A DNA stretch of 58,509 nt, the filler included, from Dugesia japonica (taxonomy: Eukaryota), in NCBI GenBank assembly GCA_001938525.1. It is 5 parts of 5 records of this genome, joined end to end, with 100 filler letters (N's around TTAATTAATTAA, not from the genome) between each part and the next. Parts side by side here need not be neighbours in the genome. Positions count along the whole stretch, not along the records: positions 47,440 to 58,509 come from MQRL01639309.1; 4 more parts are not named here. One strand, written 5' to 3'. The translations under genes were made by a program, and so were the position numbers. The notes under the pieces were generated by a model. That model ran no database searches. It was not told the DNA's origin and saw only the letters and a program-made list of their open reading frames with translations. Shown in pieces: positions 13,015 through 58,509 of this stretch (position 1 is its first letter; every line of letters starts with the position of its first letter).

Positions 13015-13114
13015 NNNNNNNNNNNNNNNNNNNNNNNNNNNNNNNNNNNNNNNNNNNNTTAATTAATTAANNNNNNNNNNNNNNNNNNNNNNNNNNNNNN
13101 NNNNNNNNNNNNNN
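13015..13114. other. Artificial assembly spacer
   Basis: 44N + TTAATTAATTAA + 44N = 100 bp. Confidence 0.95.
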
Positions 13115-30129: not shown

Positions 30130-30900
30130 ATTGATCGCATTTGAGATTTCATTAAAATGAAGAAAAAGCTTCGATCAAAATAAGATGTATTTGTAAAGAA
30201 ATTCAAATTTTCGACACTTGTCTTCTTCAGGAATGATGACTTTTTGATATATTCAATAGAGCAATAGATCTTTACAACAAAATTCTTTATCTTTTATCAA
30301 AATTTTATTGGTCTATTGAAAGTAAAATTTTTTTATTTTAAAATTTAATCTCAGAAAATCTTTTTTATTAACATTAAAATTTTACAATATTAAAACTCTA
30401 ATTTTTTACTAATTTTTTTTACAATTTATTAATTATTGAAAATCTTTGAAAATTTTTAATTAATATTTGTTCATGTTTTTTGTCTGTGAAGTGTAGAAAT
30501 ATAGCCTGTTCCTAATGTTTGCCATGTAATATGACGACTTTCTGGTTAAATATTATGTTTGTTTTGAAAGTGTTTTAAGACTTCACTTTCTTTCTATTTA
30601 AGATGTTCTTTAATTCTTGTAGGGATGGTTCTCCACGATTCTCCTATATATGTATACTTACATCAGGTGAATATCATTTTGTAACTGATATTTTTATTAT
30701 TTATTTTTATTATTTATTTTTATTATTATCCTTTACCATCACAAATGCATTGGAAACCACAAAAATTCTGTCTTGGTTTCTGTAATTTAAAGATTTTCAA
30801 TAATTAAAATAATTAATAAATTTAAAAAAATATTAGTAAAAAATTAGAGTTTTAATATTGTAATATTTTAATCTTAATAAAAAAAATTTGTTGAAATTAG
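30130..30900 (-). mobile_element. Truncated Penelope-like element with an inverted pLTR segment
   Basis: GIY-YIG remnant YTYIGESWRTIPTRIKEH (~30600-30660); hammerhead at 30201-30234; 30790-30900 is an inverted copy of 30345-30445. Confidence 0.8.
30201..30234 (-). ncRNA. Minimal hammerhead ribozyme motif
   Basis: Minus strand: attc-CTGAAGA-a-GAC-aagt-GTC-GAAA-attt-gaat. Confidence 0.7.
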
Positions 30901-30901
30901 A

Positions 30902-31550
30902 TATACAAATTATATAGACAAATTAGATATCAAACTAGCTTCATATTTTACTAATAAAATTGATTTTGTATATCACAATCTTATATATCAAATGGAGAAA
31001 TTCTACGAGAAAACCGTATCAAATTGTTATAAAATAAATAGACAATTGTTGCGTACAAAAATGGTACTAGCTTCTATTAATCTATATTTGATAACAGCAT
31101 TATTGTTCGAAGAAGCAAGAACTTTTGGGAGAACTGTCGGTGAAGCATTATTAACTTTTAAATGTAAAATCACAAAAGTTACTTTAACAGACAGCCCAAA
31201 ATGTACAAATAAACTGCCAGTGAAACATAATTATAAAAATGTCTTTTTATTATCAGTGACACGAATTTTAACAGATGAAAATTATAAACCCAAGGAAATT
31301 AATAAATGTAGTAACCTTCTTGACTCACTATACAAAATAAACGATGACGTTAGGATCACTGCTTTAGATCGTATAACAGCACAAAACCTGCTGTATTAGA
31401 GATACTGGAACTCCAAAAAAGAATGGTATTTGATAAACAATACAATATGGAAAATACTGCTATATATACTCAGGACATGGGCTGGCCAAGGAGATAGTAG
31501 AAGGGAATTGTTGGGATGTTCTATAATAATTAAGTAGGATGTGGATATGA
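30902..31550 (+). pseudogene. Chuvirus-like glycoprotein fragment (endogenous viral element or retroelement env)
   Basis: Frame open from 30902: LDIKLASYFTNKIDFVYH..QMEKFY...NC..NRQLL...LAS...GEALLTFKC..V......CTNKLPV......FL...TRIL.......CSNLL...Y; after a frameshift, AIYTQD. Cys spacing and motifs match recalled chuvirus-G-like sequences. Confidence 0.65.
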
Positions 31551-31569: not shown

Positions 31570-31669
31570 NNNNNNNNNNNNNNNNNNNNNNNNNNNNNNN
31601 NNNNNNNNNNNNNTTAATTAATTAANNNNNNNNNNNNNNNNNNNNNNNNNNNNNNNNNNNNNNNNNNNN
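31570..31669. other. Artificial assembly spacer
   Basis: 44N + TTAATTAATTAA + 44N. Confidence 0.95.
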
Positions 31670-32883
31670 TTTTTTCATTAAGCTTTACATTTAAATATAC
31701 TTTTCCAACAATTTTTAAAGAACTATTATTCGTACGTTTGACATTTTTATCAGAATCAATAATTGAAACATTTTCTATCCTTTTTAATAATTCATATTTA
31801 ATAACACTAATTTTAGCTCCAGTATCAAGTAAACATGATGTAACAATATTATTAATTTTTAAATTTATCATAGGTCGATTATCTAGAGTATCAAAATAAT
31901 TATTAATAATAATTGACAAATTATTATTATCGTCATAATTATCATTACTACTATAATTATTTTTATTATTTACAATTATATCAAGCATAACATCATCACA
32001 CAAATTATTTTCAAGCAACTCAATATCATACACACATTTACAATCATTATCAATCATACAGATATTTCTCAAATCAAATCTTACATTTTTTGATGAATCG
32101 CTCCGACAACTTCCTCTCTTGGAAGGGCTTTGGCTTTTGGGAACTGATGTGTCATAGTTCTGTCATCATCTCTCATCAAATCATNTGAATGTTCATCGTA
32201 TGCTGCAACATTGTATTGAGGATAATCTCTTTTCATATCCCGAATCTCATAGCATTGATGTTTAAAATCTCCAGGTCTGTTACAATGGAAACATTTTACA
32301 TTTGGACAATTAACTCTGACATGTCCTTCTTCTTTGCATGCCCAAAATCGTTTAGATCTTTGTGGAAAATTATTTTCGGTTCTCTTAAATCCTCTTCCAT
32401 CAAAACGATTAATGGATGCATTTGAATTAACAAATCTTCTGGAATTCGAATATCGGTTTCTGTTGTTTTCCACTAAATTATTCCTTTTAAATGTGTCTGG
32501 ACGATTTGGATAAAAATCATTAAATTTGGCAGTTGTTGCATAATTCTTCTTTTTGATTTTAACTGCTGCCAAATTGACTTCTAGATTAAGCTCCTTCTTG
32601 AAACTGTCCATTTTTGAAATAATATCTTTCATTTCTTCATTTGTTCTTAATCCTCGAATTTTTATTTCTTTTTAAACATACATATCTTCAACAGCATTTT
32701 GTAAAAGAAAACTAACGAGATTTTCCTTTGTAAAGTTATGTCTGATTATATTTTCTGCAAGACGATCAATTTTGTTGAAAAACGAATTAATGGATTCATT
32801 TCCTTTTCAATAATTTATTGCAGATAATAAATCTTTACCGATATTTGCTGGTTCTTCAAAAGCTTTTCGGCATCTTTGGACAT
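31670..32883 (-). mobile_element. Ty3/gypsy gag + aspartic protease
   Basis: Knuckles (F)WACKEEGHVRVNC and CFHCNRPGDFKHQC; protease CLLDTGAKISVI; pol lies in the -1 frame of gag. Confidence 0.88.
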
Positions 32884-34039: not shown

Positions 34040-34260
34040 CAAATTTTCTTTTTTTAGTTCTTGATAGTATTTCGAATTTTGAACTTTGTATTTGTCAGGA
34101 ATTGACTTTTAACTTTCTGGCGAAGTCAATGTTGGAAATTTGAAATACTATCAAGAACTAAAAAAGATAATATAAAAAAAGAAAAGCAATATTTTGATAT
34201 AAGCTTTTAATTTAATGAAATTCAAAATACAATCAATAGTTAAGTCCAACAATTATTTTC
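34040..34260. mobile_element. Decayed Penelope pLTR fragments in inverted arrangement
   Basis: ttttagttcttgatagtatttc / gaaatactatcaagaactaaaa inverted pair; 34190-34258 similar to the reverse complement of 30110-30180. Confidence 0.55.
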
Positions 34261-38411: not shown

Positions 38412-39024
38412 AATTATCCAAATTAAATCCAAAATTTTAAATTGATTCTTAAGATTCTATTTTAAATTTAAAATGAATTAAATTTATTTTAAAGCTACAA
38501 ATTTTAAATTGTTTTTTTGGGACTTTAGGAGGAATTTCTATAAAAGAACCCCATTTAGTTAAATATTAAATTTTCGTAATAGCATATTATTCGTGTTCTA
38601 AAATTAATGTCACTCAAACATCTTACCGTAATGAAATACAAACGAAACGAAATGAAAAATTAATAACAATAATTGAAATAGATTCAACCAAATAAGTCTC
38701 ACTGTCATCTTACGATTGATTAACATATAAACAGATTTTGTATTTAAAATTATTTCTAAATTAATCTGGTCATCGTTTTATCATGACAATGTTTGCTGAG
38801 ATCTCTAAAATTTGCAAAAATATTAATTTTTGTATTTAATAATAAATACACAAAAACTATCCTTTCGATTTAATAGATTCTATTTCCAATTTATTAAATC
38901 TTGAAAAATTACTCGATTATTTCTGACATAAATATTCGCGTATCAATCGATATATTAACTATGTAATAAATATCACTGTAATGATTTATATAATTACTGT
39001 TCTATTATTATTAATCGCTTTAGA

Positions 39025-40039
39025 ATGATGTTATTGAAATTGTCTGTGATCACAATTTTCACTGTTGTTGGATTGTATTATTTATCAGTCTATATTAAAG
39101 GCAATCTGTGTCATTTGAAGGATCGAATAGATGGAAAAATTGTTCTTATTACAGGGGCAAATNNNNNNNNNNNNNNNNNNNNNNNNNNNNNNNNNNNNNN
39201 NNNNNNNNNNNNNNNNNNNNNNNNNNNNNNNNNNNNNNNNNNNNNNNNNNNNNNNNNNNNNNNNNNNNNNATAAATGCACAAGTGGATGATGATAAAGTT
39301 TTTACACATTTACTTGATTTGGCATCGATGAAATCAATTCTTGCTTTTACAAAACAATTTAAAGAATCTGTAGATAAATTAGATATTCTAATTAATAATG
39401 CTGGAATAATGATGTGTCCATATCAAGAAACAGTGGATGGTTTTGAAATGCAAATTGGAGTTAATCATTTAGGTCACTTTTTGTTNNNNNNNNNNNNNNN
39501 NNNNNNNNNNNNNNNNNNNNNNNNNNNNNNNNNNNNNNNNNNNNNNNNNNNNNNNNNNNNNNNNNNNNNNNNNNNNNNNNNNNNNNNNNNNNNNNNNNNN
39601 NNNNNNNNNNNNNNNNNNNNNNNNNNNNNNNNNNNNNNNNNNNNNNNNNNNNNNNNNNNNNNNNNNNNNNNNNNNNNNNNNNNNNNNNNNNNNNNNNNNN
39701 NNNNNNNNNNNNNNNNNNNNNNNNNNNNNNNNNNNNNNNNNNNNNNNNNNNNNNNNNNNNNNNNNNNNNNNNNNNTTTTGATCTGAATATGTGATTTAGT
39801 ATGGTGGTTTTATACTAGGATATTTTATGAGGACGCCATTTGAAGGAGCTCAAACATCAATTTGTTGTGCCGTGAATCCGGATCTTCATCAACATTCTGG
39901 GGAATATTTCAGCGATTGTCAACCTTTGAAACCTCAAAATCCACAAGTTTATAATGAATCATTAGTTGAATTTCTTTGGGAGCACAGTAATAAACTTATC
40001 AATTCAAAATTGTCATCGGTTTATCCAAATGAACTTTAA
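39025..40039 (+). CDS. Retinol dehydrogenase 11/12/13-like short-chain dehydrogenase/reductase (gapped; probably at least one intron)
   Basis: N-terminal membrane anchor; [10 protein letters not shown]; LDLASMKSI; [14 protein letters not shown]; [16 protein letters not shown]; C-terminal [14 protein letters not shown]...SGEYFSDC...LWEHS. The catalytic YxxxK falls in an N-gap. Confidence 0.92.
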
Positions 40040-40554: not shown

Positions 40555-43500
40555 AATTCAATTGTTAATTCATTTTGCAAATCAGAATTCGTATTGTTAG
40601 GTATTTATATTTTACTTCTACAAACACTTCTTAATAAGAGAAATGATTATTGAATAGTATTTTAAAAATCTTTATCCAGAATTTACTCAATTTCTATTGA
40701 CTCAAAATTATTAAATAATAATTATTTCCTCATATCCCCCTTCTTAAGAAACTTTCTACGTTGTTCCACATTTCTTTCTAATCGCTGTCCATTTTTTCCT
40801 TGTACCGCATACCGCCTTTCTCGAATTTTCTCAATTATTTGGCAGGGTCCTTCAAATCTGTCTTGGCTTTTATTTCTTGTTTCTAACTTGATGAGTACCA
40901 TATCGCCCACTTTGAATTCTCTTTTAGTAATCACGTCTGAAGTGTTTTCTTTAGCTCTTTCTGAAACGACTGACTCATACTACTTTTCTCTGCTAATTTT
41001 CTTTTTGCAAATAAAATCTCAGCCGGGCTCTTTCCAGTCGTCTTCTGTTAGTTTGCGTTCATTGTAAATTCTATTTCCGGAAAAGATCTGCCCAATCTGT
41101 TGACTTTCTTTCCTGAAGTGTTGCATTAATCAAATCTCGAATTGTCCTGAACTGNNNNNNNNNNNNNNNNNNNNNNNNNNNNNNNNNNNNNNNNNNNNNN
41201 NNNNNNNNNNNNNNNNNNNNNNNNNNNNNNNNNNNNNNNNNNNNNNNNNNNNNNNNNNNNNNNNNNNNNNNNNNNNNNNNNNNNNNNNNNNNNNNNNNNN
41301 NNNNNNNNNNNNAATAGCTTTTCGTATCGTTTCCTCGTCTTGTCTAGGCAATGGTATAAGAACCAGATATTTACTGTATTGGTCAACTATTCCAAGAATG
41401 TATTTTTTCCGTCCACTTGTTTCCCGCATTGGCCCACATATATCTGTGAATATCACTTCAAATAAATTGGTAGCTTCTAATCTTTTTGCCTTCTCTTTAG
41501 TTGGTGTTGTCACTACTTTGGTCTTCTGACAAATTTCACAATTTTTCTGTATTTGACAAATTCTTTGCAATATATTTTTTTCTCATATATTCGTACACCT
41601 TTTCATCTTCTGCATGACATAATAATTTATGTATTTCTTCTATTGTCTCATGTATTTTGTCATCCGGAATTTCAATTTTCTTGCTTAAATTGGTTTCCTC
41701 AGAAATGATCTTCTTTTTCAATTATATTCAGTATTCTCGTTTTAATCTTCCCTTTCTTGGCATCTTCAGTGACATTTGACATTGTACACATACATCACAT
41801 CTTGGTCTAGATAACATATCTGCATTAGCATTTGGAATTCATTTTCTATATTCCAAAATCATATCTAAACTGCTCAGATAATTAATCCATGTTTGGAATT
41901 GTGACGTAATTGGTTTCTTCGTCGTCATCGTGAAAGTTAAAGCTTTGTGATCTGTTCTAAGAGTGAATCTTCTACCATACAAGTAATGTTTGAAATGTAT
42001 ACAGAAATAATAAACAGCCAATAACTCCTTTCGTGTAATGCAGTATCCTTTTACATGACTTGTCATTGAATGTGATCCATTGGCAACAACTCTTACTCTT
42101 CCTTCTTTATCTCTCTGTGACAATACTGCTCCAACCGTATCAAAACTGGCATCTGTATCTTATATAAATTCTTTGTTTATGTCCGGAAAACACAATATTA
42201 GTGCAGTCATTAAAGATTTTTTTAGACCCTCAAAAGTATCGTTTATTTCATCTGTCCATTCTTATTTTTTGTTGCTTGTTCCGCTACACAACTGCTCTAA
42301 TATCTTTGATTTTCTTGCGTAGTTTTCTATAAACTTCCTGTAATAATTACAAATTCCCAAGAAACTTCGTAACTTCTTTACACAGTTAAGTTTGCCAAAG
42401 GTTCTTATTACTTTTATTTTAGACGGGTCAGTTCTAACACCATCCCTGCTAATTATGTGTCCAAGAAATATGATTTTGTTTTGTAGAAACTGACACTTTT
42501 CTGGATTAATTCTTAAACCAGCCTTCNTTATTTCCATCAATACTCTGTCATTTACTTCATAGTGTTGATATTTATTGTTCGTAAATATCAGTATGTCATC
42601 AAGATAAACCATGGCTCCAGTAATTCCGCCTACCACTTTTGTAAATACCGTCTTTTCTTGAGATTCTTCTCCGAGCTCTACCTGACAGTATGCATTTCCC
42701 AAATCTATCGAACTGAAATATTTGACTCCATCTAACCTGTCCAGCATTTCATCGACATTAGGCATAGAAATATCTTGTCTTTTAGTTACTGCATTCAATT
42801 TTCTGAAATTCAAACATATTTTCATGTGTTTCTTTTCCTTTTTCCAAACACTGATCAGCGGGGTATTTCATGGAGAGTTGCTTTTCCGGATATTATTATT
42901 CTCGAAAAGGTTTTGGATATCTTCTTCAATTTTAGATTCTAAGTTCATTGGTTGTCTATACGGTTTTNNNNNNNNNNNNNNNNNNNNNNNNNNNNNNNNN
43001 NNNNNNNNNNNNNNNNNNNNNNNNNNNNNNNNNNNNNNNNNNNNNNNNNNNNNNNNNNNNNNNNNNNNNNNNNNNNNNNNNNNNNNNNNNNNNNNNNNNN
43101 NNNNNNNNNNNNNNNNNNNNNNNNNNNNNNNNNNNNNNNNNNNNNNNNNNNNNNNNNNNNNNNNNNNNNNNNNNNNNNNNNNNNATCCGTTTTGCTATCG
43201 ACTTTTCGCATAAGTGGTTATCCAAATATCTTCTGCATATCTTTTCCTCCTATCAGATCTATCAAAAAAAAATCTTTTTGCAAACTTCATCAATTATCAC
43301 TCCAATATTAACTTTTCCAGCAATTTCAAGTGTGCTATTATTTGCACAACGCAATCTTTCATCACTCATTTCTAAAATGCATTTCTAGTAATTTATTAAA
43401 GCAACTTAAACTCGTCACGTTAATTCGAGCCCCTGTATCTAATAAACATTCTACGTTATTTCCTTGAATTTATACCGTAACACTTGGTCTGCCTTGAAAT

Positions 43501-44620
43501 TTATGGTACGAAATATTTGTTTTCTTTTCTGCTTCATTTGTTCCAAGCCATTCTACTTTTCTTTCATCGGCAAAAGTTTCCCTCTTTAAGAATCTGTATA
43601 CTTTTTCTGTAACTTTCTAGATATCATCCTACTTTTCGACTCCTTGAGGATAATTACTCACTTCATTTAACAATTGTTGGCTCCAACCAACTCCTCTACT
43701 GATGGAGCCCTGCCTTTTGAGTACTGCCTTTCGAAATCACTTTCATATACTTCCTCATATCCATCATTTGTACTGACATCTTTATCTTCAATCGCATACA
43801 CTCGATCATATCGGTTTCTTGATCTTTCTATAGTCATAAATTTCTCACTTGTTCTTTTCGCTTTCAAATTTGTGTAGCACTCTTCTGCTCTATGTCCACC
43901 ATTACCACATCGTTACACCTCACTTCTTGACATAACCTTCTAATATGGCCAACCTTTTCACAAACAAAACATTTTGTTGGTTTTTTGTTTGGACAATCTC
44001 GACTTAAATGCACTCTGCCACTTTTTTGTCGGACAATTTGCTTTTGCATGACTGATCTTATGACATAACCAATATTCGATATTTTATTCTTCCTTTCTTT
44101 GCTCCACATGTCTATTTACTGTATGATTTACAGGTTTCTGATAATTTCGATTTGTAACTCTTGCTTAACTTCTAAAAGCATCAACTCGATCTCTGTTTTT
44201 CTCTACTAGATCTACTGACGCCATCGTTTCTTCAATTTCTTCAATATTCTCTCGTTTCCGCAAAGTCACTTCTTTTTCAACTTTTTTGTTGTCTGAACAA
44301 CATACTAGCATCTTTGCTACTATTTTTCCTTCAGTAAAATCTTTATTTGTAAATAATCTTTTTAATAAATCTTTTACATTTCTAAAATAAACTTGAATTT
44401 TTTCATTTCCACGCCTGTAGTTAGTAAATTTTGAAAATCTTTGATAACATGCCTTTCTCAAATGCCATACGTAAATGAGCCTGAAAACCTTCAGCTTTTT
44501 TCTACGTCTTTGCATATTCTTCCAAGAAATCTTCATCTAACAAACAAAAGACTAATCTCTCCTGTTGTTTCACATGAGTGAGGTTTTAAACTTCAAAATA
44601 TAATTCACACCTTTGATGAT
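40555..44620 (-). mobile_element. Near-complete degenerate Ty3/gypsy internal region plus partial 3' LTR
   Basis: Gag knuckles (CFVCEKVGHIRRLC); CLLDTGA; IDLGNAY; YLDD; DTDAS; LRTDHKAL; IFTDICGP; FEGP; PPT AAGAAGGGGGA at 40735-40745 followed by TGAGG. Confidence 0.95.
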
Positions 44621-44812
44621 GATGTCGGCCATTGCTCAAGAGGACTGTGATAAAGCCAGGTCTCTTTCCTTTAGTTTCGCGTTGGCATCGCGTAACGAGG
44701 AGTTCTTTCGTTGCAGAACTACGATTTTAGAATAAAAGGTTCTCTGGGTAGTACACCACTTCTTTTAAAAATCCGATAATGGTGTGTCGGTCAGCTTCCT
44801 GGTGTTGGGCAC
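44620..44812 (-). pseudogene. Mini-ORF remnant starting at tgcag|TG, truncated by the gypsy element
   Basis: (x)TG-PNTRKLTDTPLSDF*KKWCTTQRTFYSKIVVLQRKNSSLRDANAKLKERDLALSQSS*; coiled-coil-like. Confidence 0.4.
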
Positions 44813-45129
44813 TGCAATTATTGAGAATTTAATATTAATCTTGAATTTATATGGGTAATTATAATGCGAAATTGAAATCATATGATGTTCATTAAAATTT
44901 ATTAATTAATCAACATTAAAATTTAACAATGAAATCAGTGATGTGTAATAATCGAGCTTAAACTTTACCATAACTAATCTTATTATTATATTATTTCCTC
45001 ACCGAATTTTATGCTCACAATTTTCTGACAGAAAGAAAGCAATTAAAATCAAACTATATTATAATAGAAACAAAGAAAATTGATCAAACAATATCCTCTT
45101 CCTCATACAACGGAATCAGTATTTGTTAT

Positions 45130-45586
45130 AATGTATTTTCAACTTTAGTAAATAATCGGTCTGACATTTTTGAATGCTCTTCCTCCTCGCGTTTTGTAGC
45201 ACGTAACGCCTTTATCAACTTTTGTTGCTACTGAACCAGTTCGATGGAGCGAGCGAGCAAGGTAACTAATTATTTTTCACGAGCCGCTCGTTCTTCCACT
45301 AATTCTCTGATTCACTTTCGATTTGTTTGATCTTGGATGTCCACCCGTTCTTGTAATTGATCAAACATTGTCAGCTTGTGCTTTAGAACATTTGGTAAGT
45401 CTGCTGGACGATTTGTTCTTTCAACCTGATGATCTGCATATCTTTCAATTTAAGTTTATCTTGCACAATCCACCATGGATCCGCATCTGTGCCTTTCGAT
45501 CCGAGTGAATCCCATAAAGTCGGCATGTTGTTGCATGGTTTTGCATTAAAGAAACACCCCTCGTCTCTCAGTAAATCTCTGGCCAT
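45130..45586 (-). pseudogene. Degenerate ORF of unknown function
   Basis: 67-aa ORF (45383-45586) continues as coding-like, higher-GC sequence with stops and frameshifts. Confidence 0.35.
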
Positions 45587-46689
45587 GGTTTTAGTGATAT
45601 GACGAGACTTCTAACTATACAAAACATTTTGAATATTAAAATATTATGAATGATAATTCAATTCTTACTAATACCTAAAACAATCACAATGACAATATCA
45701 ATTTAATAAAGAACTAAATTAATCCAATTGCTATCGCAGAATACCGATTATTCGTCATGGGTGGAAGGAGTAAGATCTTTTTTATCTGAGATGTCTCAGA
45801 ATTTATCATAAGCTACGTAAGTTCAAAATTTTATATTCATTCCTTTAGGGTTTCATATCTTCTCATGATCTGTATAAAGTTCGTTTAACTAGACATAATC
45901 CTTTGAAAACCCATCTCTTCCCTCATAACAAATAGTTCTCTTGCATTATCATGACAAAATTCTAAATAAAGTGGTATCAATTTTATCGCTAATTATGCAT
46001 GAAAATTATTTATAATATTAATCATAATTATACACAAAAGAGCGTGATGTTCATTTATAAACGACTTAATATTTTCATCACAAGTATAATCACATCATAA
46101 CAATAACAGGAATAAATCATTAGAAAAGAAAAACATTTAGAAAGGAATCAACCAACACCATCAATAATATCTCGATCTCTTGTACCCTCTATCCTCTCTC
46201 ACAACATCTCGATCATATACATATGCATTTATTAGCTCGCAACAATTCTTTCATCATAATAATTCTCTACTAACAACTGTTAATACTCTAATTCAACAAC
46301 TGCTATGATCTCACTCATCCAACATTTAGTCATAACTCACTTACAATCCTTCATCTTCCATATACATCTGCATAAACGCTCCGTTCACGTAACTCTTAAT
46401 ATCTCTCATCAACATTTACACTTCGATTCTCGTAAAGTCGTTAAAATTTTAATGTTACTCCTCACATCTCCATAAACATTTAACACCCACATCTCACAGA
46501 TCATATAAATAAATAGGGATGGATCATCTCGTGTCATCCAAATCTCTGAGTCCTAATGCCCATCGTTGCCAGCGTGGCTAGTCAAAGATAAACATCATCA
46601 CAGTCTTCCGTTCATATATTAAAATTAACAATCTAATAAAGTTACTTCAGATCGATTCCTTTCGAAAAATCTTGAAATATATTAACGAC

Positions 46690-47125
46690 TTTTAATACAA
46701 TTTTTAAAAGTTGTCGTTTTTTAGTTTTTAGTTCGTTGCAATTTAGAGTTTGCGAGTTTTAATCATTTATTGAGTTCAATTTTACATCTGCGTTTATAGT
46801 GATTTTATTTCTATCCCCTTTTGACGCCCTGTGTGGGTGTCTACTTCAATTATTTAAGAAACCGTGCGGTGCTTAACCGTGGTTTCTACATAAATGACTA
46901 TATTTGGTCATTTTTATTTTGCTCATCTTGTGGCTCGTATTTCTATTGATCATTTATTTTCTCAACAAAGTGCGGTATTCACCCGACACATACAAATTTT
47001 AGCTGCAATATAAGTGCGATGCTTACCCGATACATATAATTTTCATTCTGTAAGCACTGCGCGGTGCTCACCAAACACATAATTTTCATTCTGCAAGCAC
47101 TAGGCGGTGCTCACCCGACACATAA
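46690..47125. repeat. Motif-repeat region, homologous in inverted orientation to 57635-57975
   Basis: gtgtgggtgtctactt and ctacataaatgactatattt match exactly in reverse complement; five GCGRTRYTYAMC-type motifs at 46866, 46972, 47016, 47061, 47104. Confidence 0.8.
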
Positions 47126-47339
47126 TTTTCTAAAATAATGCATGTCTACGCGTGCAATGGTGCCAATGAAATCCATGATCATTGGACAGGCACGAATGAT
47201 TTCTAAAAATTAATAATATTTATCGATAATAATATTTTCTGGAAAAACAAATATTAATAAATTTAATAATATTTATTACAAAGTAATATTTTAGGTAGTA
47301 TGTTACTATATTACAAATAGGAATATATATATATATATA

Positions 47340-47439
47340 NNNNNNNNNNNNNNNNNNNNNNNNNNNNNNNNNNNNNNNNNNNNTTAATTAATTAANNNNN
47401 NNNNNNNNNNNNNNNNNNNNNNNNNNNNNNNNNNNNNNN
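47340..47439. other. Artificial assembly spacer
   Basis: 44N + TTAATTAATTAA + 44N. Confidence 0.95.
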
Positions 47440-47699
47440 GATTTTCTTTACTAATTCGTAGACGTATTGGTGAAATTAGAAGGAAAACAGCACAGGATGT
47501 AATAAATAATAAAGTTAAAAGTTTACTATCACTAAAATCAAAGGCAATTACTAAATTCAAAAACTTTATATTCAAGCGAATTTTCTAAAATAATGTCCAA
47601 ACCAAAACCAAATTATAAAAACATTATTAAAGGAACCGGAATAAAACGTAAGAATTATATCATTTCAGATATAAACAAACGATTGAAAAGATCTAGAAC

Positions 47700-48700
47700 C
47701 GTATTTCACTAATGATTTGTGAAATCACTGAATTGTTTATTTTTGACAGATCATCGGCTCAAAGTGTTATTGAATATGGGTAGTTTGAAGATGTGTTTCT
47801 AATGAGTATTATTTCTGTTATATTTGAAAAGAGCAAACTCTGTAATATGTTTGGAATCAACAGCTGATGATTAAAGTATGTTAATAAACAAAGTGTCACA
47901 ATTAAAGCCCTTGGAATTTCAGAATGGTAGACAAGAAAAGGCTCAACTTTAAAATCACTTTCTGTATTTCCTTCTAGACCACGTTTATAATGATGTTTAC
48001 TAATTCTGTATCCAGGTCAAGATATTTCAGATGAAGAAATATGTGTTCTTCGCCGCATTCGTTTCCAAAGCAGGCCAGTCTTATCAACTTTCAAAACCTG
48101 CTTAGCATATAATTCATTTTACTCAACGATCGCTTTTAATTCACTTCAAACTTTGTTTGCAACTAAAACACTCGCACGGGTTAATTCTTATTTTACTGCA
48201 TTGTAAAATTGCACTAGTTTCGAAACGTTCATACTAGCCTTCCTAGCTAACAATTTTTCTAAAGATCCAATGTTCAATAATATGAAATTATTTTTAATTT
48301 CATTGAAAATACTTAAAGCTTTTTTTGAATCATCATTTTGCTGAATGACATTCTTCATTTGATTTTGATTTTTTATCCAAATGCTAAAATGGGATTTCAC
48401 TTTTAATAAAACTGAATTTCTCATCTTTGTTCTTTACTTTCATTGTGATAGTGAAGTCTCATTTTTAATCAGGATCTCGATTACAAATTTAATTTACTGT
48501 ATTAGATGCTCAACCGAGACTTATTCTAATATCAACAATCCTTTCCAGATTTAAAACGTTTGCAAACTTCTAGTTTGAGTTCCCACCAAATAATTATTAT
48601 AAACTCCAGTAACTAATCAATATTTTATTAAAATTTTCGATTAAAACCATTTCTTTCATCAACAAAATAAAGATTAATCAACATCCGTACAAAGCTATAC
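47700..48700 (-). mobile_element. pogo/Tigger-like transposase remnant
   Basis: VLKVDKTGLLWKRMRRRTHIS (DETGLFWK-like); GNTESDFKVEPFLVYHSEIPRAL (GNAxGDFKLKPLLVYHSENPRAL-like). Confidence 0.75.
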
Positions 48701-48739
48701 ACAATAACTCTACTAAATTATTTTCCGCTCTCGCGGGAC

Positions 48740-50160
48740 GTATTATAGGAGCATTTGGAAAATATTCTATTTGTCTTCGGACAGCATACAACTGGTTTCA
48801 CAAATTTAGCAGTGGTCAATTTGTCATCAACGATCAGCCAAGATATGGTCAGCCGTCACTTGTTTATAATGACCTTATTTGTATCTGTGTTGAACTCTCG
48901 AAGAAGTTTGGCGTCAGTCACACTACCTGTTTGCATCATTTGAAGAAGATTGGTAAGGTCAGTAAATTGGACATATGAGTACCATACAAGCTGAGCAACT
49001 TCGACCGTTAACGCCGTATTGAATACATGCTTGTCATACTGTCAAGATAGCGTCGTTATGATTGGCTCAATAAACTGATCACAGTAGATGAAAAATGTTG
49101 TCTGTTTTCTAATAAAATGATACGCAAAAGAAGCTGGGTGGACAAGAATACAAGCTTACTACCTCATTTAAAGGCCAACCGGCATCAAAAAAAGATAATG
49201 GTTTGCGTTTGATGGGATGTAAAAGGTGTGATTCCCTGTGAAATGCTGAGACGTAATCAAACTGTCCATGCGGAATTCTATTGCCAACAACTGCAGTGGG
49301 TGGCAGATGCAATTGCCCAAAAGTGACCAGAATTGAATAAAACAATGTTTCTGCATGATAATTCTCGACCGCAGGTTGCAAACATGANCAGTGAAAAACT
49401 TTTGGAGTTGGAGTGGGAAGTTATTCCTCATTCACCTTATTCTCCAAATTGGCACCAACGGACTATCACTTATTCCAGGCCTTGCAAAACTACCTGAATC
49501 TTCATAAGTTTGCAACTGATGACGATTTAAAATCTGCAGTTGGAGGCTTTTTTGACAGTAAACAAATGGACTTTTACAACAAGGGCATCAATGACGTAGC
49601 CCATCGTTGGAAGTATGTCCTTCAAAATAATGGCGATTACTTTAACGATTTATAAATTACTTATTCCTGCNNNNNNNNNNNNNNNNNNNNNNNNNNNNNN
49701 NNNNNNNNNNNNNNNNNNNNTGCCCAAAAGTGACCAGAATTGAATAAAACAATGTTTCTGCATGATAATTCTCGACCGCAGGTTGCAAACATGAGCAGTG
49801 AAAAACTTTTGGAGTTGGAGTGGGAAGTTATTCCTCATTCACCTTATTCTCCAAATTGGCACCAACGGACTATCACTTATTCCAGGCCTTGCAAAACTAC
49901 CTGAATCTTCATAAGTTTGCAACTGATGACNNNNNNNNNNNNNNNNNNNNNNNNNNNNNNNNNNNNNNNNNNNNNNNNNNNNNNNNNNNNNNNNNNNNNN
50001 NNNTAGCCCATCGTTGGAAGTATGTCCTTCAAAATAATGGCGATTACTTTAACGATTTATAAATTACTTATTCCTGCATTTCTTCTTTGAATTTCAATGT
50101 ATTTATCATTCTATTTTGCTATCAATAAAAATTGTGCAAGAACTTTCTTTCCAAAACGTC
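48740..50160 (+). mobile_element. Degenerate mariner (DD34D-type) transposon
   Basis: ITVDEK; KKIMVCV*WD; FLHDNSRP; WEVIPHSPYSP/LAPTDYHLF; multiple stops; the 3' ~360 bp is duplicated across a gap. Confidence 0.9.
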
Positions 50161-50659
50161 CGAGAAATGAATAATTTTTATAACAGGGTTGAAATATTAA
50201 ATAAAATTATGATTTATGGTTGAGATAGTAATAAATAAATAATATGTTGATTCTAATGGTTGGTTTTTAACCATTATTCATCATTGAAATGATAAAATTA
50301 AATATTTTCAAAATTAAGAAAATTAATTAAGGCTTAGATCAAACAATGGTTTTAAAAAATTTTTATTAAGGATAAAAATTTTAAAAATTTAACTTACTTC
50401 CCCAAATGTTTGAGTTTATCTTCTTCGAGAGTTGTGATTGATTAATTCAATTTTTTTAATNNNNNNNNNNNNNNNNNNNNNNNNNNNNNNNNNNNNNNNN
50501 NNNNNNNNNNNNNNNNNNNNNNNNNNNNAAAAAAACATTTTTGGCCTAATCCTTAGTTAAATTTCTTCATTTTGGAAATATTTAATTTTATTTTTTAAAA
50601 TATTAAATATTTAAACATTTAATGAACTTTTCTGCTTATTAATAATAAAATTAATAATA

Positions 50660-50973
50660 AAAGAAGACTTAAGCTCAGAAGTGTAACCGCTCTGTATCAA
50701 GAAAACCAACTAAATGTCCGATAGTGGCAGAAGACTTACAGACTTTATGTAAAAAAATGCTTCCAAAAGAAAGACATCGAAGTTATAGACGCACTAATTT
50801 TAATAGCACGAAAGAGAAGCTGGTTGACGATACAAGATAATCGAAAATGTCTCAAATGTAAATCAGAAGATAAATTAATCGAATTACCAATACCAAATAC
50901 AGTGTTCAAAAAATTGTGTTTAACATGTACAGAGATAATGCGACATCAATTAGAGAAAACATTTAATGAATGA
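50660..50973 (+). pseudogene. Small ORF remnant with a CxxC-x19-CxxC zinc finger
   Basis: CLKC (50848) ... CLTC (50917); stop TGA at 50971-50973. Confidence 0.5.
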
Positions 50974-50982
50974 AATAAAGTA

Positions 50983-52296
50983 ATGGCACAACGGAAAATG
51001 AAAGAGAAACCTTTTCATACAATATATCAGTCCCGAATCGTTGAGGACGTCGATTTTCCGAAAGAAGGGAGTGATCTGCTATCAATAGTAACGAAAGAGT
51101 TTATAAAAACAACGAAAAGAGATTACGGAATAAAGAGATGGCAGCCAAAGAGATGTTACAAGGCTTTAACACATTCAGCTCGTTAGCAAAAAACAAGGAA
51201 CAACATTGGTGAAAGCAGATACAACCCAAAATGAAAGACAAAAAAAACCAAAATAAAGAGATAAAGTAGAGTACGTTATCGGTAGATGATGTGATGGATT
51301 TTATAGAAGATACAGAGGCAAAGATAAAGGAGTTGAAAGCGTCAGACGAAGACGGACAGAAAATCGTAGCAATGTGGAGATGAATCAAGGCATTCACGGA
51401 AGTTGAAAAAAGAGTCGGATCACTACTTTTCTTACAAAAATTGAAGATAGAATGTCAAGAGCTGATAAAAAAATTGGAATGGAACAGAATAAAGAGAAAA
51501 GCGATTCAAGACAGCAGCAAAGGGACACGAGACGAAAGAGAAAAAGTCGAATAAATAGAAATAAAAGGCGATAAGCACAGAATCGGTGTGGTACAGGTAC
51601 AGAAATAAAATTTGAAGATGATGATGGTGACAACGATTATAAAAGACTGATATTAATAAAACAACCAGAAACGACAAACGAGCTCAAAACGATTTAAAAG
51701 AATAAAGAAAATTTAGTTAAAACATGGAACAGTAGATCAAACTGGTTCAAGGCGACATGGAGCAACAGAGAAACTGGTTACGATACGGACGAGCAGAGTA
51801 ACATTATCAAAAGTTGCGAAGAAGATCCCAAAGGAGTGTCACTTCAATGGTGGAGAATTTATGAAGAATAATGAAATACGGAGAAATATTGAATCTGGAA
51901 ACAAAAACAAATGGAAGAATCAGACAAAATTATCGTTCAATGGGACTTAACGAGATGGTACTTCAAATGCAATACAGAGGATCAGTGGAACATCACAAAA
52001 TGGTGCGAAGATAATCCAGAAGATATGATACCGCGATGGTTAGAAGTTCAACAGAAATGGCAATAAGATGAGAGATACAAAGCTTGGAAACAAAAAGAGA
52101 TAGAAAAATAATGCAAGAACTTGAGAAAATGGAAGCAGAGAATGAGAAAATGATACAAAAGATTTCTTTACCTGAAACACCAGTAATAAAAGATGACAGC
52201 AGAATCTATGAAGAAATAATAACGGATGAAATTGAGCCAATCTATGAGAACGAGAACAAGGATGTAATAGTAATTAAAACGCCGTTACTCAGATGA
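50983..52296 (+). pseudogene. Degenerate charged and Trp-rich ORF(s) of unknown function
   Basis: Long readable frames with scattered stops, e.g. TWNSRSNWFKATWS...QWDLTRWYFKC...WNITKWCEDNPEDMIPRWLEVQQKWQ. Confidence 0.45.
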
Positions 52297-52495
52297 CGAT
52301 GGGAAAAATAGCGCGGACATGTATCGTATCGATACCAATAATAATATATTCATAGTGTGTATAATAGCATTGATGGCAATGGTATGGCCTACAAAGATTG
52401 GAATTCAGGTGACAAAATTATACGAAATAAATGAAACTACGACAGCAACAAGCAGAGCAAACAAAACGATCAAAATGATTGATAAATGGTTATAA
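52293..52495 (+). pseudogene. Small frameshifted membrane glycoprotein
   Basis: ATGA overlap with the previous stop; hydrophobic IFIVCIIALMAMVW; NET and NKT sequons. Confidence 0.4.
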
Positions 52496-52779
52496 ATATA
52501 TATATATATATATATATATTACTAGCATTAATAATGGTAAAGGTGATTCAAAGCGAAAGTATGTGGACAACGGGTCTGACAATAATAACAAATCCGAGTA
52601 AAAATGAGAGTAACAGGTATTGGACAATAATAATAACAGTAGCTATATTAACATTAATAATAATGTCATTAATTCTGATAACGATCGCTTTAAAAGGAGG
52701 AAGAACAGATAAACGAAGAGAGTTCGGAATGGAAACGCCCAAAGGAGCGAGTCAAATGATGATTCCAGGAAACCTGTAG
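52486..52779 (+). CDS. Small membrane protein (signal peptide, short ectodomain, TM, tail)
   Basis: Intact 97-aa ORF with two hydrophobic segments and an NES sequon. Confidence 0.5.
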   Translation: MVINIYIYIYILLALIMVKVIQSESMWTTGLTIITNPSKNESNRYWTIIITVAILTLIIMSLILITIALKGGRTDKRREFGMETPKGASQMMIPGNL

Positions 52780-52785
52780 ATATAT

Positions 52786-54253
52786 ATGATAATAATCGTG
52801 TTAATAATAAGAGTAATCAATGGAGAGGAATGCTACGATTATGAAGATGTACATACAGAACATCAAGTATATTTAAAGAGATTCGAGTTAAAGATACAGA
52901 CAATAATGAGAAAAGGACTGAGACGCGTTTTGATAAAAGGAGGTCATTATACGAAAACGGAATATGGAGCTCCATTTACATGGGTACAACCTGGCATACA
53001 GGTAAAAGGTCGAGCAATGATTGTAAAGATATTCAGAGAATCTTGTCAAGTAAATCTTGAGGTAACAGGAGAAAAACCACAAGAAGTACGATTAATACAA
53101 TATCAAGGAGTATATGGAAATCCATACCGATAAGAAACGTGGACTTTAAGTTATCACAAAGATTCGGGAATGTTCGAAGTGTTAAGAATCTTTAGTATAT
53201 ATTACAAGAATTATTTCCACATTCTATATTCAGGACGAGATTGGAACAAATCAATATGGGGGAAATGAGAGATATTGTGTAAAGAAACAAGTATCGTATA
53301 TATCACACTTATAGAAATTTACACCGGAAGGAGTGCATGAAGTACTTTGGACAAAACGAGGAAGAATGTTTGAAGAAAAACGAAGCGATATACCTTACAG
53401 CAGGAGAAGTGCGCTTGGAGTTCAGATAAATTGGACAGGAAAACCTGTGGAATTATCAGTGTTGCGAGAAGGAAAACAAAATATGAGAATTGGATATTAT
53501 CTATCTTTTAAAGATTGGACAAACTGTAATTTGTTATTAGAATATAAATGGGATGACAACCAACGAGAATTAAAACGCAAAATACATTTGGGATATGGTA
53601 AATGGTTCGAAGTGGAATATATGATAGAGTGGGAGCTGCCACCAGATAAAACGACAAAACAAGTCACGAATCCAAGAGTCACATCAAGAATGACAAGCGA
53701 ACCAATACTGACAACAAAGTTAACCAGTAAACCGAAAACGACATGGGGTCGACAGATAACAAAGCCAGAAACAGCAGAGAAGAATAAAGTAAATAACATT
53801 ACAGAAAACAATACAACCCCGTAAAGGATAAGGACCAAAGTGAATCAACAGGAAACTAGAGTGAAAACGAACAAAAATCAGAAACCTTGATAAGAGTGCT
53901 GAATAAAGAAGAAAAGAAATTATCAAAAAATTAATGGAAAATATGGCAAAAGCTAACGAGATAAAAATCCAAACAGATGACTTAAAGTAACTAGAGGATA
54001 TAATGAAGACGATGACAATACCGTAAACAGATGTTGGATGGTTAATGAGACTGATTAGAGATGCGGAGGAATAATAGCGGTAATGGTGTTAGTAATTACA
54101 GTTCTTTTGAATGTCAAAGTGAGAAAAAAGCAATAAGCGAGACCAAAGATTCGTAATAAATTGTTAGAATTAACAGACAAATATTTACATTCACTCAAAG
54201 CAATGGTGAGGACCGGTTCCTCTGAGAGGAGGGCGGGCGGAGATATTTGGTAA
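52786..54253 (+). pseudogene. Large type I membrane glycoprotein, env-like architecture
   Basis: Signal peptide MIIIVLIIRVING; ectodomain read through stops and a frameshift; Thr/Pro-rich stalk with NIT and NNT sequons; TM IIAVMVLVITVLL + KVRKK (~54070-54130). Confidence 0.55.
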
Positions 54254-54612
54254 TGAGAGGAGAGAGAAAATTGTTTAAATAACTTGAACTCGAAATGTAA
54301 TAGTAGAGTGTAGTGTAGTATAAACAATGTATATGGATCACAATTACTTTTGAGAAAACGAGAATTGCAAAATGAGCGTTTTGTGAGAAAAGAGAACCCG
54401 AATAAAAGAGAGATGTAAAGCAAAGTGAAGGCGGGGAGGTGATCGCAGATATTTAAATTATTACATATAAAATTACTAGAACAAGTTAAAATTGTAAATA
54501 ACTATAAAAATCAGACAGAGATGATGCTAGCCCAGCTCAAAATTATTATCTAATGAATCGATTATACTAATAAACTCTTATCTTGATAAAATTGACAATT
54601 TTATATTACAGA

Positions 54613-55410
54613 ATGGCATCTAGACTATATTACGAAAACCAAATTATGAGATGGAAGCATCAATTTGCCGCAACCCAGGCAACCCAACAACTAGCAGATG
54701 ACATTCAAAAAAATAAAATTATCGAGCTAAAAAGAAGTGTTCATTATTGGAAAAATCAATGTTTAAAGAACGGGAGTGAATTTAAAGAGTTTAAATTATT
54801 ATTGAGACAAGAACGAAAAAAATTAAACGTTTTATTAAACGAACAAAGAACGTTGATAAAATGGAATCAAAAGAAAGCCAAAATGTTAGAGCTAACGATC
54901 GCAAATAACAATTTAGTCAGAACACAGGCTCAACGAGTATATTTTGAAAGAACTCATAGAAAAATTTAAGGTAAAGAAAGTTATGAGATTGAGAGTAAAA
55001 GATAGAAGAAAGCGTATGAGGAAAGTCGTACAGTTATTCAGAATCTAGAAAACAGCAACAAATATCCGATACAGGCAAATGAACAATTAAATAAAGAGAA
55101 GGAAGAAAATGAGAATCTTATTATCGAAAATGTCGAGCTAACAAACGAGTATAGAAAATGGAGAAGCAGATATGAGAAATTAAAAAATTTACCCATTTCA
55201 GTAATGCTACCCCCAAGAAGCCAGCCCAACAAACTAATCAGACCCAATTAACTTCAATCAGAACGATCTTTATCATTGGAAATTAATTATTTGGAGCAAC
55301 AATCGCAACAAAGACGAAACGTTTTTTGAATTCTAGAGGTTCCAATGCCCGAACCTTCAATCAAATGGCCCTTATCAGAATCTGATAAAATTCTCTTCTG
55401 GGGTCGTTAA
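54613..55410 (+). pseudogene. Coiled-coil protein pseudo-ORF (266 codons, 4 internal stops)
   Basis: One frame from acag|A-ATG to TAA 55408-55410 with no frameshift; E/K/Q/L-rich. Confidence 0.55.
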
Positions 55411-57634
55411 ACACAGCCTCGAACATTGTAAAAATTGTAGCTATAATTGATATGTTTTCTTCTAGCAGTTATATATTTCACCATATATTGTTAGCAGTTC
55501 TATGCTGCATCAATTCCTAATCCAACCCGAACAGATCTTGACGATCTCAAGTAGAATTCCTAAATTTTGTTTACCTAGAAGGAAATCCCGGCTGTCCTCT
55601 ATCGAAATTGATTCTACACATTCTAATTTTCTTCGGAGATCTTACATCGTGACAGTGTAAATATTTCGATTTTAATTATGTAATACAACCCTGGCTATCC
55701 CGTATCAGCATCATGCAGTTTTCAAAATTTTAATACCTGCAAGCATCCCGGCTATTTTGCAATAACATCGTAAATATCTCAATTTTCTAGTATCAAATTT
55801 CCAGCTACCAATGACTCTTTAGTTCGATTAGATAAAAATCAACCTTTTCAAACTGGAAGCGAAATCTCAGCTTCTCTAGAATAATTCCCGAGACCAATCA
55901 GCAGCAAATCCCTATCAGAATCTTGAAAGATATTCCAGAGTATCTGCGACAAAACTTCCTCGTCGTACTACGAATTCCAATGATCCAGAGAAGTAGTAAC
56001 ATTATATACTAACTTTAATTGTGGGAAAATTGTGATTTAGTTGACAATAATTTTGTGATCCATAACTGAACATTTAACTGCTTATATTTTGCTAACGTAG
56101 ATTTATATTAAAAGTATTTTATTAATTTGCTTATTTCTTTAGTTTTTTTCTGTTATGACCAATGAGAAATCTTGTCTGATAGGATCTTTTTCAACCAACA
56201 TCACCAACGAGAAATATTGAAATGAGAAGTAAAGAACTCAGTGAATTCGATTGATGAAGAAGAAATGTAAAAAGAAGAAATTTAGAGAATTCCGGGGCGG
56301 AATTTTTTGTGGGCCCCAATTAATTTGTTTGGCTGAAACAGACCAGTTAATAAAAAAAATATTAAAACTAAACGAAGCAGTGAAAAGAGGAGACAATAAG
56401 ATTCACGATTAAATGAAGTAATAAAAGAAAATAAGAAAAAGTAAAGCGATAATAAAGAATAAAATAAAATAGCAGCTTCAATAAATTGATAGCTTAAATT
56501 AAAATTAAATTAAATTAATGACAATGAGAGAATTCAGCAGAAAATAATAATTAGAATAAAAGAAACAAATAAACCTAGCTCATCGAAATAGATCAAAAGC
56601 TAGAAAATAATAAGAAAAGTTAAGAATTAATTAATGAGAAGGAATTAAATAAACTCAGAAACCAATGATTATTAAAATATAATAAAAGGGGACATTAATA
56701 ATTGAAAGTGCTCACGAAAATGATAAACCGATTAAAGAAAGTAAATGATAAATTCAGAGATAAAATAATAATAATGAAATACTAAATGAAGATCATGAAA
56801 GGAAAAGAATAATAATAATAAATTAATTAATGAATACTTTATACAAGAAATGTTAAAGGAAGAAAATAAATAAATCAAAAAACGATTAAATGCTCGAAGA
56901 AATAATAATCAATAAATTAAAAGCACAAAAGCTCAAATGATATAAATGTGGCTCACGAAATAAAAAAAATTCGAATTAAATTTATAAATTATGTCAGAAA
57001 ATGGTAAATAAGAAATAGTAAATGCAATGAAATCGAAAATAGAATTGGAATATATTATTATTTATAATTATATATATGTTATAAAAGTAGAAATACGCTG
57101 GTAATTAGAAAATAATAAAATTAATAGTTTTAAAAAGTATAATTAAAACAAAAGTAATTTGTATTAAAAGATTTTATTAAAATCGAACAGAATTACGATA
57201 AAATAGATAGGAAATAAATGAGTATTATAATTATAGTTAAAAACGTTATCAAAATTATTATAATGCCATAAGGAAAAATCATATCATTGTAATAAAGTAT
57301 TAAAATAATTAGAAAGTAAAAAATATTATTATTTTGTAATAAATATTATTAAATTTATTATTATCAGTTAAATATTGTTATTTACAAAGAAAGAGTTAGA
57401 ATCTAGAAATCAGAATTAGATTCAAGGAAAGATCATAATAAATTATGTTGTATTTATATATATACATATATATAAAATTATTTATCAGTTACGATGTAAT
57501 ATACCTTTTTTATCTTTGCAGAACAGGAAAACCAAGTTTTATTTTTTTCTGTGAAAAATATTATTATTTTTCAGAAACTGTGGATAAACACTGATGAGCA
57601 AGATAAAACTAATGCATAATTTTATCAATGACAC

Positions 57635-57975
57635 TTTGTATTCGGTGAACACTAAACATACTTATTACTGTCTACAAATAATAACATGTATATCGGATGA
57701 GCACCGAGAAACACCGTGGTCAATAAAATTTATGATGCTGATTGAGCACCGTTATTTATATGTAAAATAAAATTTATATGAAAATGAACGAGCATAATCT
57801 GAAAAATAAAAATGGCTAAATATAGTCATTTATGTAGAATCTGCGGGTAAGCACCGCATGGTTCTGTAATTTAAAGTAGACACCCACACGACGTATCAAG
57901 ATATAATGCAAAGAAAATTACTATAAAAACACAACTTACTAAACTAAAATCATCTTAAATCTCTTTTAAAAGTTG
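57635..57975. repeat. Motif-repeat region, inverted homolog of 46690-47125
   Basis: gagcaccg / taagcaccgc motifs; aagtagacacccacac. Confidence 0.8.
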
Positions 57976-57989
57976 TGACGCTTATTCAC

Positions 57990-58509
57990 TTAGGTCTTGT
58001 TTGTGGGAGAATCAGTTTTGTTTTTTGATTTTTCAGTTTTGTTTTCATCTTTTTTCTTCAATCCTATGGTCCAATAGATGGCTGTAGGGGGTAATTCTAC
58101 TCGTAGTGGTATTGATGTTATAGGTTCTAATGTGTCCATTTTTGGATCAAGATTATAATCTTTTGTGGGTTTNNNNNNNNNNNNNNNNNNNNNNNNNNNC
58201 TTGAGATGAATGTACGCTTGTCGTATCCATTCAATTCTGTTATTATTAGTGGGTACTGCAGTATGATTCATTGACCATATCATGTCTTGTATTCTGAGTT
58301 GAAATCTTACAGGCTTTAATATAGCTTCAACAAACAATATTTATCCGATGTTTCGTTGTGTTTGGATTTTTTACTAGATTCTGGTGCCACTTTCTTTCGG
58401 CTATATCTCTATATTCTATGATGTGCCTCTGATCTATGTGGAGGCTAGCTAGTTTCTTTTCTAGATCGTAACCGATCAATATTTTCCCATATAGCATTTG
58501 TCTGGCTTG
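57990..58509 (-). pseudogene. DEDDh (REX4/ISG20-like) exonuclease C-terminal half, frameshifted; runs off the window
   Basis: QMLYGKILIGYDLEKKLASLHID...YRDIA resembles LxGxILVGHxLxxDLxxL...RDT; later IQ...NHTAV resembles IQ...HSSVED. Confidence 0.45.

Follow-up and report, generated by a model that had tools for sequence, protein, structure and literature searches.

An array of eight open reading frames (ORFs), all read from the + strand, occupies positions 50714-54253 of the stretch of Dugesia japonica DNA analysed here (assembly GCA_001938525.1). This stretch, the window, is 58,509 nt long including filler and joins five parts, positions 47,440-58,509 being MQRL01639309.1. The frames number seven if ORF3 and ORF4 form one gene, and another, ORF9, lies at 54613-55410. 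The packing of the frames is tight, the stretch is a member of an abundant, diverged repeat family, and known relatives are absent for every ORF searched in Pfam, the PDB, two protein collections, viral contigs and the Atlas. On balance, we favour the explanation that the array forms the accessory region at the 3′ end of a long terminal repeat (LTR) retroelement of giant size and Ty3/gypsy type, a Burro-like endogenous virus, of which the window would hold a decayed copy with eight or nine packed orphan genes on the + strand.

Such an element would spread through an RNA intermediate. Its gag, fusion env and pol genes would lie upstream, cut off in the present copy, and its LTR would start shortly past ORF8 and contain ORF9. 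Expression of the packed genes would use subgenomic RNAs that are probably spliced, and where junctions overlap, translation would resume by stop-start reinitiation, a route that we infer from those overlaps and from what is described for complex retroviruses and rhabdoviruses (PMC4334499, PMC7264820). ORF8 would act as a stalked attachment protein beside the separate fusion protein of the element, ORF6 and ORF7 as small membrane helpers, ORF5 as a tyrosine-motif adaptor acting on host signalling and ORF1 as a zinc-binding regulator. More tentatively, and with the odds rather against it, the element may be a giant invertebrate retroelement that combines a virus-grade accessory cassette of eight or nine genes, a stalked attachment protein of unknown fold that is distinct from its fusion protein and a Src/Grb2-type adaptor, which would make it a complex endogenous virus entering by two proteins or else an endogenous virus of a class not described so far.

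Packing and coding signal of the array

The window is AT-rich and full of decayed mobile elements. Do the frames differ from what such DNA holds by chance? Coding signal was scored as the least-cost path through the frames, a stop costing 1 and a frame change 2, in comparison with local dinucleotide shuffles. On the + strand the path cost 31 versus 64.0 ± 4.7 after shuffling, and none of 200 shuffles was as low (z −7); on the − strand it cost 34 versus 34.7, with 93 of 200 shuffles as low. The coding signal is confined to the + strand and all genes of the array are on that strand. ORF8 alone gave a cost of 13 versus 25.5 (0/200).

The initial annotation had described co-oriented ORF remnants with tiny or negative spacing, and the sequence bears this out. 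Nine nucleotides separate the ORF1 stop at 50973 from the ORF2 ATG at 50983, ORF5 and ORF6 share an ATGA at 52293-52296, ORF6 and ORF7 overlap at 52486-52495, and six nucleotides lie between the ORF7 stop at 52779 and the ORF8 ATG at 52786. A fifth junction had been missed: the TAATG at 52109-52113 joins ORF4 to ORF5. When only frames of at least 40 codons are counted, the array has four tight junctions, a number that none of 500 shuffles reached (mean 0.31, maximum 3), and in the window's 14 remaining blocks of 3.6 kb the count lies between none and two per strand. These comparisons confirm that the tight, virus-like packing is real. The array had also been taken to end at ORF8; ORF9 beyond it carries coding signal as well (path cost 5 versus 11.9 shuffled, 0/200, z −3.7), and the same test detects none in 55410-57400.

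An abundant and diverged repeat family

Copies were surveyed by placing contigs from three DNA or likely-DNA sequencing runs (X1, X2 and X4, one of which may be the source of the window) on 50530-58170. The contigs placed numbered 3066, 3155 and 2904, respectively. In X1, 239 of them were at least 99% identical to the window, 389 were 95-99%, 1065 were 90-95% and 1373 were under 90% identical, the pattern of a dispersed multi-copy family. A single-copy region without conserved frames, which the initial annotation had named as speaking against its reading, is not what we find: each run has about 3,000 contigs and the frames carry coding signal.

Contigs identical to the window have a depth of 23.5-26.7 in X1. 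Summed contig depth, which by the tool's own warning is not a copy number, reached 5475 over ORF1, 7369 over ORF4 (bin 51805-52059) and 481-1000 over ORF8, and was as low as 58 over ORF2 and 42-56 over 55375-55884. Read roughly, these depths mean tens of copies of ORF8 and hundreds of the most widely shared parts. Rarely shared parts thus alternate with widely shared ones along the array, as would be expected if subfamilies swap or quickly change their accessory genes. Among 40 listed differences between copies, 28 fall in frames, divided 10, 10 and 8 among codon positions and including 2 in stop codons of the present copy, figures that cannot measure selection.

The unevenness of depth bears on another explanation, namely that a non-autonomous or composite repeat co-amplified decayed pieces or an expanded host gene cluster, so that the cassette would be partly a product of chance. 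Depth varies more than 100-fold along the stretch, many joints skip parts, and the border between ORF3 and ORF4 is unclear, all of which this explanation accommodates. Against it, the four tight junctions beat all 500 shuffles, silent-site use differs from that of a host gene and mariner sample (P 2.7e-5), and diverged contigs run across the ORF7/ORF8 junction (52693-53123 in X1, 52656-53151 in X2). We consider it very unlikely. The breaks in the frames also belong to the copy itself: those in 53557-54190 are real and not assembly errors, because contigs exactly like the window extend over 53557-54190 in both X1 and X2, and over 53630-54190 in X4.

Nature of the carrier element

Which kind of element carries the array? 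In favour of an LTR retroelement, the ratio of A to T at fourfold-degenerate sites is 3.5 in ORF1-8 (294 sites; A 0.55, T 0.16) and 2.6 in ORF9. Control pieces of the window, some confirmed by Pfam and the rest classed by eye, gave 1.8 for gypsy gag/pol (414 sites), 1.4 for a fusion protein fragment, 0.64 for non-LTR elements (194 sites) and 0.85 for the host gene and mariner sample (61 sites). The silent-site bias of the array sides with LTR elements and is more extreme than theirs, and the composition of its codon positions 1 and 2 is close to that of the gypsy pol pieces of the window. One base past the ORF8 stop, a candidate polypurine tract on the + strand (54255-54270) consists of a 16-nt purine run followed by TG. 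This combination is unique within 50660-54400, and 13.6% of shuffles have one anywhere. Between bins 53845-54099 and 54100-54354, the latter holding the purine run, X1 depth increases about 7-fold. Taken together, the A bias at silent sites and the purine tract past the last stop argue for an LTR retroelement, probably a Burro-like one.

A candidate right end of the repeat lies at 57089-57414 (no strand assigned). Contigs diverge from the window at 57089 (19, 21 and 15 in the three runs), depth falls from 4517 to 110 past 57414, and a 10-bp TG..CA inverted match pairs 54493 with 57386, close to that fall; 2 of 500 shuffles contained such a match in search windows that had been picked after looking. 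On the left, a fold-back element at 50277-50606 (no strand assigned), with 67-nt arms that are 81% complementary, cuts the array off at about 50660. It is probably a separate insertion, since the cassette stops there, and the A skew begins only after it. Bin 50530-50784, which overlaps the fold-back element, has a depth of 8378 in X1.

An alternative is that a large DNA element carries the cassette as cargo, its compact genes including a surface protein; the element, either Polinton/Maverick-like or an endogenized DNA virus, would spread through replication and integration of its DNA. In its favour, DNA viruses typically have compact, overlapping orphan genes together with a CxxC regulator and small membrane proteins, TAAATG is found at 2 of the 8 starts, and no retroelement gene is linked to the array. 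In addition, Polintons are described as an active, piRNA-targeted class in planarians (PMC8532177). What speaks against a DNA element is that the silent-site asymmetry would be more in keeping with an RNA stage than with replication of AT-rich DNA, that every frame lies on one strand, that two queries have no relative among viral contigs, and that 50660-57400, part of an incomplete copy, contains neither long terminal inverted repeats nor a match to a protein-primed or other polymerase, integrase, ATPase or capsid. We judge a DNA element unlikely.

Several observations nevertheless weigh against the LTR retroelement as well. No gag, pol, primer-binding site or paired LTR is linked to the array in the window; comparison of the window with itself gave no second LTR, and there is no target-site duplication. 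Frames scanned in 44000-49100 and 54260-58170 gave nothing in Pfam. The two candidate LTR starts, 54270 and 54493, disagree by about 220 nt and both come from windows chosen post hoc, the best-supported loose contig ends, the ones listed, mark no strong boundary at 54272 or 54493, and across the supposed LTR the depth varies strongly, down to the 42-56 given above. The silent-site bias exceeds that of the gypsy pieces of the window (P 0.001) and gives no ground for placing the array in those families. Signals for the proposed expression route are at chance level, TURBS-like TGAGA (TURBS standing for termination upstream ribosome-binding sites) occurring at 2 of 5 junctions versus a background of 23% and YAG preceding 4 of 8 starts versus 28 of 116 other ATGs. 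Four RNA runs from three studies, searched with no control gene, each comprised 10.5-13.6 million records and yielded 50, 40, 54 and 60 reads; no read was at least 95% identical or showed a joint, and most were partial matches to a low-complexity spot. The domains of described Burro elements (MATH, BIR, ankyrin, BCL2-like and dUTPase-like) were not found in the stretch, from which the polyprotein region that holds them is absent, and every protein role proposed for the array is read from sequence anatomy, the predicted folds having pLDDT values of 36 and 46. Near 53.2-53.3 kb and 55.0 kb, a few RNA reads agree with diverged copies. A further run, X8, gave 489 contigs, which we do not count as expression since its being RNA is a guess. 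PIWI is reported to repress both LTR elements and Polintons in planarians (PMC8532177); near-silence at the RNA level fits such repression but favours neither class.

How does the array compare with known elements? Burro elements exceed 30 kb (PMC6431247, PMC11410931), with internal regions of up to 25 kb, a 4,873-aa ORF1, accessory ORFs and thousands of copies (PMC6431247). Like the present family, Burro/GYPSM1 is very abundant and has room for ORFs outside the polyprotein, and it has been proposed to represent integrated proviruses that meddle with host pathways. In contrast, the extras described for it are a MATH ORF upstream and domains within the single polyprotein of 4,873 aa, and its env is described as a fusion protein that sits in frame, flanked by gag and pol (PMC6431247), which is not what ORF8 is. 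That description, as far as it is available to us, mentions neither an array of separate small ORFs nor a stand-alone stalked glycoprotein, and our comparison is with the description alone. The Schmidtea elements Smed_errantivirus_1-6, of the herpes simplex virus (HSV)/glycoprotein B (gB) env type, are likewise multi-copy, env-carrying flatworm gypsy elements, listed with 1-215 copies, and are likely the same kind of carrier. Flatworm errantiviruses are described as having only gB-type env, placed before pol in the order GAG-ENV-POL, and the six Schmidtea rows list no LTR coordinates (PMC13524379); ORF8, by contrast, gives no match to gB or Monjiviricetes proteins and has only about six Cys. 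Plant LTR retrotransposons can carry extra sense-strand ORFs between pol and the 3′ LTR, termed env-like, with transmembrane domains and putative functions (PMC7264820), although these are described as additional ORFs and not as a packed array of this size, and they belong to another kingdom.

In layout, the array is also like the accessory regions of ephemeroviruses and hapaviruses (PMC4334499) and of foamy-like fish endogenous retroviruses (cited in PMC6431247), where consecutive small ORFs meet at stop-start junctions and include small membrane proteins and an extra glycoprotein. The layout alone is alike: there is no homology, no rhabdovirus junction signal and no excess of TURBS-like motifs. 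By analogy, the cassette may work like a viral accessory region, and it is a possible member of Burro. A related explanation is that the block came from an enveloped RNA virus, as an accessory region like those of rhabdoviruses or nidoviruses, including small membrane proteins and a glycoprotein, that a retroelement then captured and amplified. This agrees with our preferred explanation on the carrier and differs only in origin. Stop-start junctions and small transmembrane or viroporin-like ORFs adjoining glycoprotein genes are described as common in rhabdoviruses (PMC4334499), and a fusion gene with mononegavirus hits is already present in Burro (PMC6431247). On the other hand, the TGAAAAAAA gene-end signal does not occur in 50660-55500, no homologue of N, P, M, G or L is seen in the array, TURBS-like motifs stay at chance level, and no viral homologue was found by sequence or by a weak fold search. 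We give such an origin a slight probability.

With respect to the proposal of the initial annotation, an accessory and envelope region of an endogenous virus or giant LTR element, the multi-copy state, the lack of a match to a known host gene, the virus-like packing and a retroelement-like bias all stand; what finds no support is an env that is a fusion protein of a known kind. If the accessory region of a giant gypsy-type retroelement is indeed what the array represents, invertebrate gypsy elements can match the gene complexity of complex retroviruses. Burro-like elements have been proposed as provirus-like shapers of genomes, in a description that covers polyprotein domains and one upstream ORF (PMC6431247). 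The array would then identify concrete genes to be followed where silencing by PIWI breaks down, and would add orphan protein families, among them a surface head whose fold is unknown. Among the papers listed by full-text literature searches, none describes such an array in its title or the start of its abstract; Repbase, Grohme et al. 2018 with its supplements and most subscription papers were beyond reach. The family may already be named in Repbase or by Grohme et al., and if repeat libraries hold it at the DNA level, the new part is the gene annotation.

Predicted proteins and neighbouring elements

The largest product is that of ORF8 (52786-54253, +), a broken remnant of 489 codons predicted to encode a type I surface glycoprotein. 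A short signal-like segment, judged by eye, is followed by a beta-rich part of about 270 residues and by a stalk that is rich in Thr and Pro and carries sequons. A charged linker and a short coil then lead to the single membrane segment, beyond which the tail has about 45 residues; the whole protein has about six Cys. The anatomy and length given by the initial annotation (signal, ectodomain, stalk and transmembrane segment in about 490 codons) hold, with the qualification that by our own reading of the frames six in-frame stops and five frame changes interrupt it within 53131-54134. Two single-sequence folds are all-beta and unreliable (pLDDT 35.6 and 46.4), and Foldseek with the first model found no match at E 0.001 in the PDB or BFVD.

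Is ORF8 a fusion protein? Six pieces of it matched no Pfam fusion family at E up to 1 except Orthoreo_P10, which reached E 0.094 on the anchor piece, below the cut-off; short broken pieces reduce the sensitivity of this search. By comparison, the control fragment 30881-31396 of the window matches PF24664 at E 2.7e-20. ORF8 has no similarity to that fragment, the two of its frames searched against the PDB gave no match, and homology to F- or gB-type fusogens was not found. Its layout is of a kind more typical of attachment and adhesion proteins than of F or gB fusogens. Being unlike the F- and gB-type fusion proteins of known errantiviruses, ORF8 fits better as a putative attachment protein than as a fusogen. 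A possible internal duplication in its head (26% identity over 77 aa, E 0.024) was not accepted.

The other features that had been proposed, a C4 zinc finger and charged, Trp-rich and membrane proteins, also have a basis in the sequence. ORF1 (50714-50973, +) is a remnant of uncertain start with one apparent frame change and a CxxC-x22-CxxC motif predicted to bind zinc. ORF2 (50983-51186, +; 67 aa) lies in a part that few other copies share, the depth of 58 being that of bin 51040-51294 versus thousands on both sides. The ORF3 remnant (51138-51554, +) is charged and coiled-coil-like by eye, with only sub-threshold Pfam matches to DUF4349 and DUF4200; it possibly forms one gene with the ORF4 remnant (51560-52111, +), which is acidic and rich in Trp (13 in 182 codons) and is among the most widely shared parts. 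ORF5 (52111-52296, +), whose start is the one in the TAATG overlap, is intact and encodes an acidic protein of 61 aa with the tyrosine motifs IYEEI and IYEN, 10 residues apart. IYEEI and IYEN resemble Src-SH2 and Grb2-SH2 ligands. The pair, chosen after looking, occurred in 57 of 20,000 shuffles of array residues and in 6 of 20,000 of ORF5.

Small membrane proteins are predicted from the next two frames. The ORF6 remnant (52293-52495, +) has an N-terminal hydrophobic segment, two sequons and one frame change. ORF7 (52486-52779, +), intact with 97 aa, has two hydrophobic segments, a signal-like one and a membrane one, separated by a short outer part and followed by a short tail. A TA microsatellite at 52491-52519 lies within the signal-like segment, is read as IYIYIYIY and keeps the frame. 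The ORF9 remnant (54613-55410, +), possibly inside an LTR, is coiled-coil-like and open for its first 118 codons, and an acceptor-like T-rich run ending in CAG directly precedes its ATG.

No search gave a credible relative. Pfam gave no match above the cut-off for 15 cassette pieces or whole frames, and an exact look-up found none of seven ORFs. A homologue search of a protein collection left no relative among 67 candidates for the N-terminal part of ORF8, compared with longer proteins, none among 12 for ORF4, and gave no candidate for ORF1; ORF2, 3, 5, 6 and 7 were covered by Pfam, PDB or exact look-ups. These results suggest that gene calls for this family are altogether missing from the collection. 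Viral contigs had no match for an ORF8 piece or ORF9. In the Atlas, the second piece of ORF8 reached 0.84 at most, and ORF1 reached a weak 0.94 to unnamed small-protein clusters with a low recognition of 2237. Rfam had no match in 50000-58509. Two sets of candidates were rejected. HMMER with the N-terminal part of ORF8 on 1.84 billion representatives returned three tandem-repeat proteins, including the fungal-lectin-like P0003, that sum weak per-repeat scores (best single repeat 15.5 bits), and five loci in metagenome contigs were 17-residue matches in 29-codon frames, taken as chance.

Elsewhere in the window, the fragment at 30881-31399 (+) belongs to a fusion glycoprotein of Monjiviricetes type (PF24664, E 2.7e-20) and faces a gag/protease remnant at 31614-32671 (−; RVP, E 8.7e-6); an env in antisense orientation, or part of some separate element, could explain it. 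Decayed gypsy pol lies at 10620-13062 (+), 18279-19828 (−) and 40557-42867 (−), the two − strand copies being 82-86% identical. Host-like exons of a short-chain dehydrogenase stand amid repeats at 38959-39786 (+; adh_short, E 1.8e-7). At 49314-50077, a mariner-like transposase remnant, recognized by eye, includes a tandem duplication (210 bp at 99.5%, 74 bp at 100%) that is either recent or an assembly artefact. Short imperfect palindromes occur at 18170-18259 and 34050-34165. Finally, 1-1000 (+) is strongly A-rich, with an AT skew of 0.39, no long frame and no translated similarity to the cassette.

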